Positions 19,756 through 32,790 are shown, numbered from the stretch's first letter. The stretch: 36,069 bases of DNA from an uncultured archaeon (GCA_964525635.1 CAZGJX010000035.1:1-36069); one strand, 5' to 3'. Numbers and translations are program-made. Notes: generated by a model not told the origin, from the letters alone.

Positions 19756-21090
19756 GTGGTTCGCCCTCCTAAGACAGAGAAGAATATTTGTATTCGTTGT
19801 AAAGGTGCAAGGTTATTATGTGGAAAAAAAACTTGTCCTATTTTACTTAAAAGTTCAATATTAAAATCAATTATACCTTTTGAAGTGGGAAAATCTTTAA
19901 GAAATGTAGAGATTTTTGGGGCAAGTCCACCTGGTTTTTTTGTAGGGCATTTTAATTATCCTAATGTTAATATTGGTCCCTTAATTCCTTTTAATGAATT
20001 TGAAACCTTCGAAAATATTGACGATTATCATATCCTCGATGCACCTGAACTTTGGTTTGGAAGTTCAATGGATAATATTATTAGATATAGGAGTAGTTTA
20101 GTTAGAAGTAATTTCAAAGTGGATGTTAACATAGGTAAGCAAAAATTAAAAAACAACATAGCATTAAAAACTAAAAGATTATTGGAGACATCTCAAGAAC
20201 TTTCAATGGCGGCTCGGCCAGTTGATACAGAAACAAAATTGGAAAAATTAACTCTTAGAATGATTATGGATAATCATTCACAACCTATAGGGCCCTCAGG
20301 AAATACTGAAAAAATTCATATTACAGAAAATGTTAAAGTTCATCCTAAGGTTGATTATTGTGTTGCGGATACTGATTTAAAAGCAAGAGAAGCTATATCA
20401 GAATATTTATATTTTAAAGGAAATGTACCATTATCGACGATCGAGAGAATTTTTTCTGCTGGATTGCTAGGTGAAAATAAAAATCGCAGAATAGTTCCTA
20501 CAAGATGGTCAATAACCGCAATTGATGACATAATTTCAAAAGGATTAATTAAAGAGGTTAAAAAGTTTCCTGAAATTAATGATTATCAGATTTTTGAATC
20601 TAATTACCTTGATAATCACTTTAAAATCTTATTATTTCCGGGAAAATTTGCTTATGAAATGAATGAAGTGTGGGCTCCAAATTCTATTTGGAATAAGTCT
20701 TTCAATGGAGGACATCAGCTTTTAAAACCTCAAATAATAACTGATTATGAATTCTATAGAGGAAGAAAAAATTATGCGAGCAATATAACTGGTGCTTATT
20801 ATGCCGCAAGAAAATCAGTGTTAGAGTATCTTTACAGAATTAAAAAACAGGCTAAAATCTTAATCTTCCGAGAAGTTGGTTCTGGTTATACTGTTCCCTT
20901 AGGTGTATGGGTTATAAGAGAGACGGTAAAAAATGCTATGGATTTTGGAAATCCTATTATTATTGATAATTTTGATAATGCATTAAAAAAAATGGCAGAA
21001 AGTTTAACTATTGGATTGAAATATTGGGAAAAGAGTAGTAAATTAATTGAATTTCTTAAAACACAAAAAACATTAGATCAATTTATTTAA
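19756..21090 (+). CDS. nreA: Nre-family archaeal DNA repair protein (PCNA-interacting)
   Basis: N-terminal CIRCKG…LCGKKTCP, GASPPGFFVG…YPNVNIGP, RRIVPTRWSITAID, GAYYAAR, PLGVWVIRETV and a C-terminal PIP box QKTLDQFI. Confidence 0.92.
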   Translation: MVRPPKTEKNICIRCKGARLLCGKKTCPILLKSSILKSIIPFEVGKSLRNVEIFGASPPGFFVGHFNYPNVNIGPLIPFNEFETFENIDDYHILDAPELWFGSSMDNIIRYRSSLVRSNFKVDVNIGKQKLKNNIALKTKRLLETSQELSMAARPVDTETKLEKLTLRMIMDNHSQPIGPSGNTEKIHITENVKVHPKVDYCVADTDLKAREAISEYLYFKGNVPLSTIERIFSAGLLGENKNRRIVPTRWSITAIDDIISKGLIKEVKKFPEINDYQIFESNYLDNHFKILLFPGKFAYEMNEVWAPNSIWNKSFNGGHQLLKPQIITDYEFYRGRKNYASNITGAYYAARKSVLEYLYRIKKQAKILIFREVGSGYTVPLGVWVIRETVKNAMDFGNPIIIDNFDNALKKMAESLTIGLKYWEKSSKLIEFLKTQKTLDQFI

Positions 21091-21225: not shown

Positions 21226-22578
21226 TTGAAAAATCATAAAAACCAAAATTTAGTGAAAAAATTATTAAATGAACTATATCAATTTTCAAATCAAGGTGCT
21301 TATACTTTAGATAAGGAATTAAGTAAAAGTTCAATGATATATCATTACTATAATGAAATCATAAGGTTTTGGAGTAAAATCAACTTTATAGTTAAAAAAA
21401 ACTTAAGATTTATTGATCAAACATATAAACTCGATCAGAAGGAATTACCAATATATTTTTATGCAACTTATAGAATTTTATGGGAGAATTGTTCAATTTC
21501 GTCTATTTTGGAAGATTTAGGATATAAATATATTGATAGAAATGAAATAGAAAAATATGATAAACTCAAATCTTTTTTAAAAAAATTAAACACCTTTTCT
21601 CTTTCAATAGCTTTAAAAGGTAAAGAAATAGTAGAGAAAATAAGTATTGAGCAAGCAATTCCAACTTTTTTTATTAATAAATTGTTAAATTTCATGAATT
21701 TCAGATTTTTAAAAGAAAATATTGACGCAATGAATGACTCAACAATAAAAGATTATACTTTATGGTTTAATTTAAAAAAGATTGAGAAAGATAATAGATA
21801 TAATTTTAATTTAATAAAGAAGGAATTAAATGAAAAAGGAATTAATTTCTTTAAAGATCCTCATATTCCATATCTTTTTCACATCAAAAACAAGAAGGAA
21901 ATCACTAGATCTAAGTGGAATAAGAATGGATATTTAATATTCCAAGATAAAGCATCTGTTGCAGTAATTGAAATATTATCACCCAACGATTATGATTTTG
22001 TTTATGATATGTGTGCTGGACCTGGTATGAAAACAAGTTTGGTTGCTCAAATATCTAATAATAATCTGAAGATTATAGCTGTTGAATTCAATGAAAAAAG
22101 GGTAAAAGAAATAAAAAAATTACTAAAAAAATTCAATGTTAATATCTCAAGTCTTCTAAATGCTGATAGTATAAATCCTCCTTTCAATAATAAAATAAAA
22201 TTTGATAAGATTTTATTAGATGCCCCTTGTTCAGGAAGTGGAACTTTTTTATCCAATCCTGAATTGAAATGGCGTCAAAATTCAAAGTTTTTAAGTCAAA
22301 ATGTCTTACTTCAAGAAAAATTACTTAATTCAGCAATTAAACTATTAAAACAAGGGGGAATCCTTGTATATTCGACTTGTAGTTTATATGCTGAAGAAGG
22401 AGAATATCAAATAGAGAAAATCTTGAATGATTTAATACCTTTAGAATTACCAGATTGGTTAACTCCGGGTTATATTATTAATAATAAAAAAATTCCAGGG
22501 ACAGGAAGATTATTCCCATCAATTCACAGGACTCAAGGTTTCTTTATAGCAAAACTAAAAAAAAAGAATAAAAGTTGA
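21226..22578 (+). CDS. RsmB/NOP2/NSUN-family RNA m5C methyltransferase
   Basis: FQDKAS, DMCAGPGMKT, ILLDAPCSGSG, LVYSTCS (both catalytic Cys) and GFFIAKL. Confidence 0.92.
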   Translation: MKNHKNQNLVKKLLNELYQFSNQGAYTLDKELSKSSMIYHYYNEIIRFWSKINFIVKKNLRFIDQTYKLDQKELPIYFYATYRILWENCSISSILEDLGYKYIDRNEIEKYDKLKSFLKKLNTFSLSIALKGKEIVEKISIEQAIPTFFINKLLNFMNFRFLKENIDAMNDSTIKDYTLWFNLKKIEKDNRYNFNLIKKELNEKGINFFKDPHIPYLFHIKNKKEITRSKWNKNGYLIFQDKASVAVIEILSPNDYDFVYDMCAGPGMKTSLVAQISNNNLKIIAVEFNEKRVKEIKKLLKKFNVNISSLLNADSINPPFNNKIKFDKILLDAPCSGSGTFLSNPELKWRQNSKFLSQNVLLQEKLLNSAIKLLKQGGILVYSTCSLYAEEGEYQIEKILNDLIPLELPDWLTPGYIINNKKIPGTGRLFPSIHRTQGFFIAKLKKKNKS

Positions 22579-22602: not shown

Positions 22603-23427
22603 ATGAGAGAATTTCTTATGAGTAGAAAACAAAAATTTATGACTATAGGGCAAATTGATGCAACTGGAGTTACTGGGCCTCATGAAAAAGAATTAAGAGA
22701 AATTTGTGTCAGAAAGGCACCAATATTTAGAATGATGGATATTGATATAATTGAGAATATTATTATCAAAGATCTTAATGGAAAATTAGAGAATATTGGA
22801 TTTGATGAAGATTGGACGATTACTTTAGAATTTTTTCCACAAATAAAATTACATATATTATATTATGATTATGGTAATGAATTTGATGATATTAAAGATG
22901 AATTAAAAATTTTGTTCTCAGGAGAAAGAGCGTATTGGATACCTGGAGAAGATCTAGCTACATATATAGAAATTATTATGGATTTTATTGAAAAAAGAAG
23001 CAAATCTTTAACTTCATTAAATCAAAATTATAAAAAAAAAACAAATTTAATGCGTAAAATCATTGAACAACGTAAAATAGCATTTAAATTTATAAAAGAG
23101 ATAGATATTAAAGATTTTACACAATATTTAAATGCTAAAGTTTGGAAAACCACTTCTGGAATGAGAATAAAAAAGGAAATTTTTCCAGAAATATTTATTG
23201 AGATAATCTATGATAGTGTTAAATATGAATTGGATATATCATATTCAGGAAGCAAGTTAATAAATATTAGTCATTATCATATTGAATTAATTGGAACATT
23301 TCTTATAAATCATATCTTAAGATATATAGTAATTAATAATCAAGATAAGGAATTACCAGACATTTGCTATATGATGTTTTCTAGATTATTTACTAAAGAA
23401 AAAGGATGGTACTATAGAAGAAAATAG
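22603..23427 (+). CDS. Hypothetical protein with two DUF3786-like repeats
   Basis: EFFPQIKLHILYYDYGNEF…LKILFSG…IPGEDLA resembles the DUF3786 C-terminal motif. A second degenerate copy reads EIFPEIFIEIIYD…LDISYSG. Confidence 0.55.
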   Translation: MREFLMSRKQKFMTIGQIDATGVTGPHEKELREICVRKAPIFRMMDIDIIENIIIKDLNGKLENIGFDEDWTITLEFFPQIKLHILYYDYGNEFDDIKDELKILFSGERAYWIPGEDLATYIEIIMDFIEKRSKSLTSLNQNYKKKTNLMRKIIEQRKIAFKFIKEIDIKDFTQYLNAKVWKTTSGMRIKKEIFPEIFIEIIYDSVKYELDISYSGSKLINISHYHIELIGTFLINHILRYIVINNQDKELPDICYMMFSRLFTKEKGWYYRRK

Positions 23428-23482
23428 TCCTCTTAAAGAAAATTACTTTTCATTTTAAAATATTGAAAAAAATAAAAATTAA

Positions 23483-24043
23483 TTATATACTAGTCCATAA
23501 TTGAGCTCTTCCCTTTTTTCCTGTACGTTTTATTTTTCGATCACTTTCCAGATCAGATATTAATTTCCATATCTTAGAATTTGTTAATTTAAAATACTTT
23601 CTTAATTCTGGAGTAGACATTTCTTTATCATTTAATATATTTACAATTAATCTTTTAACCTCATCAATCGTATCTTCATCAGATTCTTCTGATTTATCTA
23701 CTTCTTCTTCTTCATTATCAGTTTCCATTTCAACCATAATACGAGAAGCAATTTTGTTTAAATTTTTAATATTTGTTTCAATATTCCTTGGTTTCATAAA
23801 AAGGCAACATAATTCTAAATCGTTTGGAAAAGCAACAACATAAAAATTATCATATAAAATTGCTCTTGGTTTTTTTCCAGCATTTCCACCACGGAAAGAT
23901 AAATAAAAATTAACTGCAAAATCATCTAAATTAACAAAATCTTTAATATTCTCAAATTTTTTTTTCCATTTAAGAAATGGTCCATTAATTAAATCAAATC
24001 CTACTAATGCAACAGAAAATAGTTCATTTTCTTCGAAATTCAT
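23483..24043 (-). CDS. uDENN/longin-like N-terminal domain, acidic linker and C-terminal winged-helix
   Basis: SVALVGFDLINGPFLKW matches the FDxxxGP start of uDENN/longin folds. D/E-rich linker, then IVNILNDKEMSTPELRKYFKLTNSKIWKLISDLESDRKIKRTG…QLWT (wHTH). Confidence 0.7.
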   Translation of the reverse strand: MNFEENELFSVALVGFDLINGPFLKWKKKFENIKDFVNLDDFAVNFYLSFRGGNAGKKPRAILYDNFYVVAFPNDLELCCLFMKPRNIETNIKNLNKIASRIMVEMETDNEEEEVDKSEESDEDTIDEVKRLIVNILNDKEMSTPELRKYFKLTNSKIWKLISDLESDRKIKRTGKKGRAQLWTSI

Positions 24044-24570
24044 TTTATCAACTCCTTACGTGTTAATACTTGATTTAATTCTTTTTCAATAGTTTGTATT
24101 AATTTAATTCTGTCTTGAGAATTTATTGCTGATAGACCAATTGTTTTTGTATGAAGTAAATTTTCTACTAATTTAAAATGCATTCTTCCATCCTTATTGC
24201 AGAGATCTTGTTTATTTGCAATTGCAATTATCGGGCAGTCATCAAGCATTATCTCCTTAGTTTCATTAATAAGCTGTCTTGATCGTAAAACATTTATTGG
24301 TGTAGAATCTGTTACAACAAGTATAAGGTCAGAACCTAAGACAAAATCGTTTAAATATGTTGTAATATAATATGTTTGGCCGCCAAAATCCCAAACTTTC
24401 AGTTTGTACTGGCCGAATTTAACCGTTTTAAGATCAAAACCTGCAGTAGGAATATATTTTTTTGTAGTTTCTTTTTGGGCTAACATTTTAACCATAGTTG
24501 TTTTCCCTACTGCTGGAAATCCAATTATCGAAACTTTAATAGTATCATTAATACCAGTTGTCCCTAACAT
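24040..24570 (-). CDS. Arf-like small GTPase (Ras superfamily)
   Basis: G1 GFPAVGKTT, G2 IPTAGF, G3 WDFGGQ, G4 NKQD, G5 SAI. ATGA overlap with the downstream gene. Confidence 0.92.
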   Translation of the reverse strand: MLGTTGINDTIKVSIIGFPAVGKTTMVKMLAQKETTKKYIPTAGFDLKTVKFGQYKLKVWDFGGQTYYITTYLNDFVLGSDLILVVTDSTPINVLRSRQLINETKEIMLDDCPIIAIANKQDLCNKDGRMHFKLVENLLHTKTIGLSAINSQDRIKLIQTIEKELNQVLTRKELIK

Positions 24571-24769
24571 AATTAAATCAAAATATTTTTGTTTTGTTAT
24601 GAAAAAACTGTATTTAAAAATAAAAAAAAAGAGTATTACCTTGGTGATATATAACAGTAATTATGACATGTTTTATTTAGTTGTCAATTAAATTATTATT
24701 TAAATTAAACTGAATTTTTAGCTTCTTGGGAAAATTTTATAATATTTTAAGAATAAATACACATTATCT

Positions 24770-25703: not shown

Positions 25704-26495
25704 ATGTATATAAATTTCGAGAAAAAATTTGAATTAAATAAGGATGAAATAAATAATCCAGTAATATTAATTGGATGGCCAGGTATTGCTTTAGTAGGAA
25801 AATTAGCTATAAGTTCAATAAAGGATTCTATTGATGCTCAACTCTTTCTTGAAATAAAGTATTTCGATTTTCCACCTAAAAGTTTTGTTGAAAAAGGATC
25901 ACTTGGAGTTCCAACAGCTAAAGTATATTATAAACACAGAGAGTCTGGAGATTTATTTATATTAACTGGAGATTTTCAACCTCAGACTCCTGAAGGTGTG
26001 TTTGATTTTTCTCAAAAGTTTTGTGAGGAAATGAATATTATTACAGATGAAAAAATAAAGATGTATATAAGTACAGGAGCAATGGTATCAGATAAATCAC
26101 TTAATAAAAAAAAACCTGATGTTTATATATGTGGAACTGATGAAAAAATTGTAGAGTCTTTTCTAGAATTCGATAATACAACAATGATGGAAAATGGTAT
26201 TATTGCAGGAGCTAATGGTATCTTACCCGCTTGGGCAGGAAATAACGGTTATGCACCAGGAATATGCCTATTGGCGGAGACTTTACCTATGGGTATGATT
26301 AATTTAGATCCTAAAGCATCTAAAGCACTAGTAACCCTATTGAAAAATTATTTTGATATTGATATGGATTATGCAGAGTTAGATAAAAAAATTAAAGAAA
26401 TGGAAGATATGCTGGATAAATTTAAAGAAAAATCAGATTATTTTATGAGAGATCATCCTCTGGATGAAGGTCATGAAGACTCTTATTTCCGTTAA
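25704..26495 (+). CDS. PAC2-family proteasome assembly chaperone
   Basis: ILIGWPGIALVGKLA, ILTGDFQP, GIIAGANGIL, CLLAET and DPKAS motifs, with C-terminal …SYFR. Confidence 0.88.
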   Translation: MYINFEKKFELNKDEINNPVILIGWPGIALVGKLAISSIKDSIDAQLFLEIKYFDFPPKSFVEKGSLGVPTAKVYYKHRESGDLFILTGDFQPQTPEGVFDFSQKFCEEMNIITDEKIKMYISTGAMVSDKSLNKKKPDVYICGTDEKIVESFLEFDNTTMMENGIIAGANGILPAWAGNNGYAPGICLLAETLPMGMINLDPKASKALVTLLKNYFDIDMDYAELDKKIKEMEDMLDKFKEKSDYFMRDHPLDEGHEDSYFR

Positions 26496-32475: not shown

Positions 32476-32790
32476 AGGGATAGTGATCTAATCTCTTTAA
32501 TTATAATTAGGATTATTTAATAATAATTTGAAATTTATTAAATTTTTACTCTATCAATTTTAATATTTAAATGTTTTTTGAGGATCACTATATATTCGTT
32601 AAATTCAGAAAATGTAGTTATTTGATGATTACTCATTAAATATGTTTAGATATCCTTAATTTTTGCTATTTATAATAAAAGAATAATAAAATTATTTTCT
32701 AAAAATTAATAAAAAGATCTATAGATTACAAGATATAAAACATTCAAATAATTGATTTTTTGAATATAAATAAAAAAAAAAGAAAAATCT

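Follow-up and report, generated by a model that had tools for sequence, protein, structure and literature searches.

A conserved pair of overlapping genes for an Arf-like GTPase and a longin-winged-helix protein in Lokiarchaeia

Background

Dozens of small GTPases are found in Asgard archaea, alongside dozens of longin and roadblock proteins, and the question raised by the locus described here is which of the one kind acts with which of the other, and to what end. The locus lies in a 36,069-nucleotide (nt) stretch of DNA from a Loki-type Asgard archaeon (GCA_964525635.1, CAZGJX010000035.1:1-36069; hereafter the window, to which coordinates refer unless another sequence is named). On its minus strand, between positions 23483 and 24570, a gene for an Arf-like GTPase overlaps the gene for a protein made up of a longin domain, an acidic linker and a winged helix, referred to below as the partner. 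An earlier interpretation made from the DNA alone, the sequence-only reading, had proposed that the GTPase controls a DNA-binding protein directly, an unusual link between GTPases and transcription.

Operons offer few clues of this kind, as GTPase-regulator operons are uncommon in MK-D1 and operons rarely help in matching the two sorts of protein (Tran et al. 2024, PMC10933270). A 2025 survey of longins that are GTPase-activating proteins (GAPs) asks which GTPases partner the Asgard longins bearing a Gly-Pro (GP) motif (PMC12290439), a question to which the operon studied here would give one ready-matched answer: an Arf-like GTPase together with a GP-motif longin. The catalogue of Liu et al. 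covers NPRL2-like longins as well as other operons conserved in Asgard archaea (bioRxiv 10.1101/2020.10.19.343400); the main text of that paper does not describe this GTPase-longin operon.

Results and discussion

A two-gene operon conserved throughout the Lokiarchaeia

The open reading frame of the GTPase (24040..24570, minus strand; 176 amino acids, with motifs G1 to G5 and the catalytic Gln65) runs into that of the partner (23483..24043, minus strand; 186 amino acids). The four shared nucleotides (24040..24043, minus strand) are TCAT on the plus strand and ATGA in the coding direction, such that the TGA stop codon of the GTPase overlaps the ATG of its partner, an arrangement pointing to translational coupling. 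The stop codon of the partner is followed by a convergent intergenic spacer of 55 nt with oligo-T runs (23428..23482, minus strand), which likely represents the end of the operon; as the flanking genes on both sides also lie on the opposite strand, the GTPase and partner genes are taken to constitute a two-gene unit. The stretch itself is AT-rich and archaeal, and the related loci are titled Promethearchaeota or Lokiarchaeia. The sequencing runs that contain it are salt-marsh metagenomes, with no RNA run among those listed.

The level of conservation of this arrangement was studied using 80 loci from other GTDB species. In all 80, an orthologue of the GTPase is found immediately upstream of the partner, an obligate synteny that cannot be ascribed to chance. 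The two reading frames overlap in 77 of these loci, the extent being 4 nt in 49, 11 nt in 21 and either 1 or 14 nt in the other seven. Identity to the related loci is higher for the partner (63-87%) than for the GTPase (50-77%). The partner is single-copy in its own genome. When 400 genomes from the phylum were scanned, it was detected in 122 of the 134 belonging to the same family, and every family sampled from the order and the class had it too (E 1e-42 to 1e-97). The pair is single-copy and near-universal in Lokiarchaeia. Five of the 12 family genomes without a match were examined. Two of them have a contig that stops within the conserved neighbouring gene, and in three the neighbour is missing too, hence these five absences are attributable to gaps in the assemblies and not to losses.

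Outside the class, in three Asgard families, a GTPase 38-41% identical to that in the window lies directly upstream of a GP-longin. The GP-longins at L083:1288-1857 and L092:1258-1848 (both minus strand) have a tail that differs from the winged helix; this other out-of-class tail, of about 80 amino acids, contains two helix-hairpin-helix-like motifs and is (HhH)2-like, with matches that fall below threshold (IMS_HHH, E 0.021; HHH_5, E 0.15). A further GP-longin, at L084:1453-1848 (minus strand), has no C-terminal domain and ends in a poly-Arg tail. Farther relatives, consisting of the longin only, have no GTPase nearby. To judge by these sequences, the ancient conserved core is the GTPase plus the GP-longin, and the winged helix is the Lokiarchaeial form of a variable tail that appears always to be basic or of a nucleic-acid type. 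The two overlapping genes described by the sequence-only reading, including the 186-residue partner, are therefore present as stated, on a strand which that reading did not give, and the pairing extends well beyond one genome, being Lokiarchaeia-wide with its GTPase-longin core shared by three other Asgard families.

The GTPase

The Pfam family Arf (PF00025) matches the GTPase with 69 bits, relative to a cut-off of 22.3, while Roc and Ras score below Arf and Gtr1_RagA, at 20.1 bits, is under its cut-off of 22. The best solved relatives are Arl3, Arl8, Arl1 and Arf1 (E 4e-15 to 1e-11), and the orthologues are annotated in their sources as 'ADP-ribosylation factor-like protein'; the protein is assigned on these grounds to the Arf family. 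All five nucleotide-binding motifs can be read from the sequence: G1 is GFPAVGKT (GTPase residues 17-24), G2 is Thr42, G3 is WDFGGQ (residues 60-65, including the catalytic Gln65), G4 is NKQD (residues 119-122) and G5 is SAI (residues 147-149). Each is conserved across 86 orthologues, as is a family-specific block, TDSTPxNVL.

An N-terminal amphipathic helix is the defining trait of membrane-binding Arf and ArfR proteins (bioRxiv 10.1101/2024.02.28.582541). The GTPase in the window has none, strand 1 being preceded by only 11 residues (MLGTTGINDTI), and it is therefore probably soluble. A separate observation concerns two of the out-of-class orthologues (L084:1849-2331 and L092:1845-2324, both minus strand), in which G3 has His in place of the catalytic Gln (DLAGH); eukaryotic Sar1 likewise carries His at this position.

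The longin domain of the partner

No Pfam or NCBIfam family matches the partner above cut-off, and its relatives are mostly labelled hypothetical in the sources. An AlphaFold2 (AF2) model was built from a 42-sequence alignment, giving a predicted local distance difference test score (pLDDT) of 74 for the whole protein; for the N-terminal domain alone the pLDDT was 77 and the predicted template modelling score (pTM) 0.71. Residues 1-106 (23726..24043, minus strand) are modelled as a longin/roadblock-type GTPase-platform domain, in which strand 1 (residues 8-17) and strand 2 (21-29) are followed by helix 1 (39-51), strands 3 to 5 (61-83) and a single long C-terminal helix, rather than two, beginning at residue 89-92. 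Because the chain opens with strand 1 at residue 8, and has no N-terminal helix, the topology is that of a longin and not of a roadblock protein.

Alignment of this domain to solved structures with VIA-align gave MglB (3t1r_A, Z 9.4), TRAPP Bet5/Trs23 (3cue_A, Z 9.3), Mon1-Ccz1 (Z 9.2) and a Lokiarchaeial longin (8yqg_B, Z 8.9) as the closest matches, followed by LAMTOR and the adaptin small chains, and nearly all of the top rows (Z 8.4-9.4) are GTPase platforms. FLCN, NPRL2 and SMCR8 are not prominent among the structural matches of the domain. A Foldseek search of the partner against the PDB returned nothing at E 0.001 or better, and the matches of a partner-family profile to solved structures are confined to the winged helix. 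The partner has no DENN or d-DENN part.

The most strongly conserved feature of the domain is the turn between strands 1 and 2, Gly21-Pro22 (23978..23983, minus strand), which ends the segment VGFDLINGP (residues 14-22). In a family alignment of 144 sequences, G21 is found in all 144, P22 and P59 each in 143, G53 and D17 each in 142 and F16 in 141; furthermore, G21, P22 and P59 are invariant in 27 diverse members that include other Asgard families. The loop between helix 1 and strand 3, RGGNAGKKPR (residues 51-60; 23864..23893, minus strand), is the other conserved feature and holds two arginines, R60 being present in 128 of the 144 sequences (with Lys in a further 8) and R51 in 124 (with Lys in a further 5). 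A GP motif ending the loop between strands 1 and 2 is found in FLCN, NPRL2, SMCR8, C9orf72 and some Asgard longins, where it adjoins the arginine finger, and is missing from the non-GAP longins that were compared (PMC12290439). By longin topology, the turn and the RGGNxGKKPR loop should be found together at one end of the sheet. Given this placement, and the proximity of motif and finger in the surveyed longins, R60 or R51 are candidate catalytic arginines, which may fulfil the role of an arginine finger.

The same observations bear on whether the longin could instead be an exchange factor for guanine nucleotides (GEF), or an effector or scaffold with a passive role. Functions of these kinds, and not that of a GAP, belong to most longin platforms, examples being TRAPP, Mon1-Ccz1 and Ragulator. 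The Z of the GEF platforms TRAPP and Mon1-Ccz1 is level with that of the GAP MglB, and no arginine is invariant through all the distant members of the family. Nevertheless, R60 and R51 are kept in about 86-89% of the 144 sequences, and the distribution of the GP motif, present in GAP longins and missing from the compared non-GAP longins (PMC12290439), is not what would be expected of a GEF or a scaffold, making either an unlikely function for the partner.

The linker and the winged helix

The longin domain is joined to the C-terminal domain by a linker (residues 107-126; 23666..23725, minus strand) with a net charge of -11, which is predicted to be disordered, the pLDDT being below 50 at residues 110-122. 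The winged helix that follows (residues 127-186, or from about 123 in the AF2 model; 23486..23665, minus strand) has a net charge of +7 and a basic wing, KRTGKKGR (residues 172-179). In VIA-align, it matches archaeal and bacterial winged helix-turn-helix (HTH) regulators, Z-alpha domains and the Rpa2 winged helix, with Z of 10.6-9.3 over 58-69 residues and a root mean square deviation of 1.5-3.2. The best solved match of the partner-family profile is an Lrs14-like archaeal regulator (E 2e-4). Although the HTH scores of the partner in the window are under cut-off (HTH_27, 14 bits; HTH_5, 13 bits), those of orthologues from sister families, L090 and L091, are above it (HTH_DeoR, 27.6 versus 21; HTH_5, 23.7 versus 22), and the best HTH E value among the members is 7e-8 (HTH_11). 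Near-invariant residues are found where the recognition helix begins (N155, S156, W159 and K160) and in the wing (R173, K176, K177, G178 and R179). Both this conservation and the HTH matches fit with DNA binding, which would then be the function of the winged helix.

The succession of a longin and winged helices is also the layout of NPRL2 and NPRL3, in which two or three winged helices follow the longin (PMC3521125, PMC3747258). This suggests a different explanation, whereby the partner is a minimal NPRL2/NPRL3-like GAP operating free of DNA, with the winged helix serving as a protein-protein or dimerisation module, or as an anchor to a membrane or some other scaffold. Besides the shared layout, such an explanation can draw on the GP motif that the partner has in common with NPRL2; on a weak neighbour in the Atlas (score 0.77), an Asgard cluster with Pfam NPR2 in 19% of its members; on the alignment by Foldseek of the whole partner model to a GATOR1 chain, poor as it is (TM 0.32); on the scores of the window's winged helix, which are under every Pfam HTH cut-off; and on L084, which does without a C-terminal domain. 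It accounts less readily for a winged helix with a charge of +7, conserved Lys and Arg residues in the wing and a conserved N-terminus of the recognition helix, for the identity of the family profile's best solved matches, which are DNA-binding regulators, or for divergent orthologues that exceed the HTH_DeoR, HTH_5 and HTH_11 cut-offs. The tails that replace the winged helix elsewhere are also of polyanion-binding types, and as a client the GTPase is Arf-like rather than a Rag (Gtr1_RagA, 20 bits, under cut-off). A DNA-free GAP is hence possible but rather unlikely.

Most of the description given in the sequence-only reading agrees with these results: the GTPase is Arf-like with G1 to G5 intact, the N-terminal domain is longin-like with a GFDxxxGP turn, the acidic linker and the winged helix with its basic wing are in place, and the pairing recurs. 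The label uDENN finds no support among the 25 best of the 78 Pfam families matched by 27 members at E ≤ 10. The combination of a longin with a winged helix is nothing unusual, being already known from NPRL2/NPRL3 (PMC3521125, PMC3747258), and the proposed link from GTPase to transcription is accordingly one reading among several.

A promoter element shared with ftsZ

A comparison of 76 orthologous GTPase promoters revealed a position-conserved element approximately 73 nt before the start codon, the core of which is the dyad rTAATAy-N3-5-rTATTAy. Perfect copies of the dyad occur in 35 of the 76 promoters, and 52 have it with no more than one mismatch; in a background of 3010 rough upstream regions of the window's own genome, the corresponding counts are 2 and 52. 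The ftsZ promoters of the same family carry the dyad at about -75, perfect in 12 of 30 and with at most one mismatch in 19 of 30. The corresponding element in the window, ATATCAC-CAAG-GTAATAC (24633..24650, minus strand; 63-80 nt before the GTPase start), is the degenerate form that the family dyad takes in this genus and is directly followed by a T-rich, TATA-like stretch (24611..24630, minus strand) that may function as such.

Elsewhere in the same genome, the strict dyad precedes ftsZ-a (-74), ftsZ-b (-70 or -103, according to which start codon is used) and the gene for a XerA-like tyrosine recombinase (-37), which has Phage_integrase and SAM-like N domains; these sites (G000:C9, about 32555-32572; G000:C16, about 21512-21529; G000:C14, about 49379-49395) are among the few promoter-proximal copies of the strict dyad in this genome. 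Genome-wide there are 35 copies in 4.45 Mb, which is no enrichment over shuffled sequence (38-51). For the family, the connection with a cell-division regulon stands; for the window it is weak, because the dyad of its own GTPase promoter is degenerate.

It is here that the proposal of the sequence-only reading, that the partner is a sequence-specific transcription factor gated by the nucleotide state of the GTPase docked on its longin domain, can be assessed, possible sites of action being its own promoter and the dyad of ftsZ and xerA. In its favour, the winged helix is ArsR/DeoR/Lrs14-like, a conserved dyad is present at about -73 in the operon promoter of most relatives and again in ftsZ promoters, in the window's genome the strict form stands before ftsZ-a, ftsZ-b and the XerA-like gene, and the high conservation of the protein is as expected for the reader of a conserved DNA site. 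However, nothing ties the dyad to the partner rather than to another factor; the genome of the window has a perfect dyad at ftsZ-a and only a degenerate one at the operon itself; strict copies across the genome are no more numerous than in shuffles (35 versus 38-51); and related lineages exchange the winged helix for a module of a non-specific type or for none, which fits tethering better than it fits sequence-specific regulation. A transcription factor gated in this manner is accordingly thought improbable. More doubtful still is the specific version in which the partner itself reads the dyad before ftsZ1, ftsZ2 and xerA, as well as that before its own operon in most Lokiarchaeia; were it true, an Arf-like GTPase would directly gate the transcription of cell-division genes in close relatives of eukaryotes, and a switch from GTPase to chromatin with an NPRL2-like layout would be older than the membrane-bound versions of eukaryotes.

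Other searches with this element were less productive. A 24-nt matrix trained on the GTPase promoters of the relatives and scanned over the window's genome identified only 17 sites of at least 16 bits, none of them at ftsZ, and the genes with the highest scores (a NERD-UvrD helicase, a GPP34-like protein and URO-D) form no coherent set. The best of the sites (20.6 bits) is 84 nt upstream of the NERD-UvrD-type helicase gene (G000:C37:32993-34765, plus strand). The GPP34-like protein among the matrix matches has 343 residues (G000:C86:10837-11868, minus strand) and matches Pfam GPP34, of the Golgi phosphoprotein 3 family (E 1.7e-10), a eukaryote-type membrane-trafficking family. A scan of the same genome for the window's own 18-nt element, allowing mismatches, was uninformative. 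One enriched word, AGATTCATAT, had been considered as the gene start of the divergent neighbour; this was rejected, as it is situated at about -60 in most loci and is part of the promoter element.

A possible mechanism

The explanation favoured here is that the GTPase and the longin form a cognate complex, in which the action of the longin is GAP-like and the winged helix serves as a tether to DNA or another polyanion; taken as a whole, it is given about an even chance of being correct. The longin domain, probably as a homodimer, would dock on the switch face of the soluble GTPase with which it is co-translated, presenting its most conserved surface, composed of the Gly-Pro turn and the RGGNxGKKPR loop. 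That surface would most likely sense or accelerate GTP hydrolysis, in the manner of MglB or of the longins of FLCN, NPRL2 and SMCR8, GAP-type action being preferred on account of the GP motif and the analogy with MglB. The basic winged helix, on its flexible acidic linker, would hold the complex on DNA or another polyanion, and the nucleotide state of the GTPase might decide whether the winged helix is engaged, and at which place, or the influence might run the other way. The promoter dyad common to the operon and ftsZ in most relatives would place the role of the complex close to cell division or the handling of the chromosome.

Several observations weigh against this explanation. The winged helices of NPRL2/NPRL3 in GATOR1 bind protein and are not known to bind DNA, and the L084 longin lacks a C-terminal domain altogether. 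The AF2 models are only moderate in confidence, and since the Z values are tied, the fold alone does not distinguish a GAP from a GEF or a scaffold. Both candidate arginines are replaced by Met, Leu, Gln or Asn in distant members. Folliculin and NPR2 are, like uDENN, absent from the 25 best of the 78 Pfam families. The dyad of the window's own GTPase promoter is rearranged as well as degenerate, and with its 3 mismatches it does not stand out from background, 44% of upstream regions doing at least as well. Finally, no protein in which the GTPase and partner are fused was found among longer proteins, although this constitutes weak evidence.

Comparison with known systems

The partner resembles FLCN, NPRL2, SMCR8, C9orf72 and the Asgard GP-longins (PMC12290439) in its longin fold, in the Gly-Pro turn before strand 2 and in the conserved basic residues nearby. 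The client GTPases also correspond, being on the Arf/Rag side, and SMCR8-C9orf72 is reported to be active on Arf. Relative to FLCN-type longins, however, the partner lacks DENN and d-DENN as well as any Folliculin, NPR2 or uDENN match (25 best of 78 families), no second, different longin subunit was found, the gene being single-copy, the position of its arginine finger is a candidate only, and its client GTPase is a product of the same operon.

With NPRL2/NPRL3 (Npr2/Npr3 in yeast) and the Asgard 'NPRL2-like' asCOGs, the partner would share a role in GTPase regulation, and it has the same order of domains, a longin (residues 1-106) and then a winged helix (residues 127-186). The differences are in size and composition: there is one winged helix here and two or three there, 186 amino acids as opposed to about 380-570, and an acidic linker in place of an intervening domain. 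In addition, the winged helix of the partner resembles the prokaryotic DNA-binding type, and its client is Arf-like and not Rag.

MglA/MglB and the prokaryotic operons of GTPases with Roadblock/LC7 proteins are similar in that a GTPase is encoded beside a regulator of the roadblock/longin superfold, and MglB, which functions as a dimeric GAP, ranks first among the structural matches of the domain (Z 9.4). By contrast, the partner has the longin topology, with strand 1 first, and adds a winged helix, while its GTPase scores as Arf and not as MglA. The Arf signature of that GTPase, WDxGGQ and NKxD, is shared with Asgard ArfR and Arf-like GTPases (bioRxiv 10.1101/2024.02.28.582541; PMC11914678), from the studied ArfRs among which it differs in lacking the membrane-binding N-terminal amphipathic helix.

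The pair is conserved and single-copy through a whole class that includes cultured strains, and the small size of the module (176 and 186 amino acids) makes it suited to direct biochemistry and structural work. The winged helix, together with the promoter element that relatives have in common with ftsZ, suggests a eukaryote-like GTPase module linked to the chromosome or the cell cycle; a link of this kind, if real, would bear on the origin of NPRL2-type regulators.

Neighbouring genes

Two of the genes further from the pair belong to the usual housekeeping complement of archaea, and no tie between them and the pair is apparent: by eye, the product of 19756-21090 (plus strand) resembles what we take to be an Nre-type DNA-repair protein, and that of 25704-26495 (plus strand) is presumably a PAC2-type proteasome-assembly chaperone. 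The gene convergent to the pair (22603-23427, plus strand), which encodes a 274-residue protein with a weak match to DUF3786 only, is outside the operon, as it lies on the opposite strand, and keeps its place beside the pair in 74 of the 80 related loci. A NOL1/NOP2/Sun-type methyltransferase gene (21226-22578) is also kept there, in 58 of the 80.

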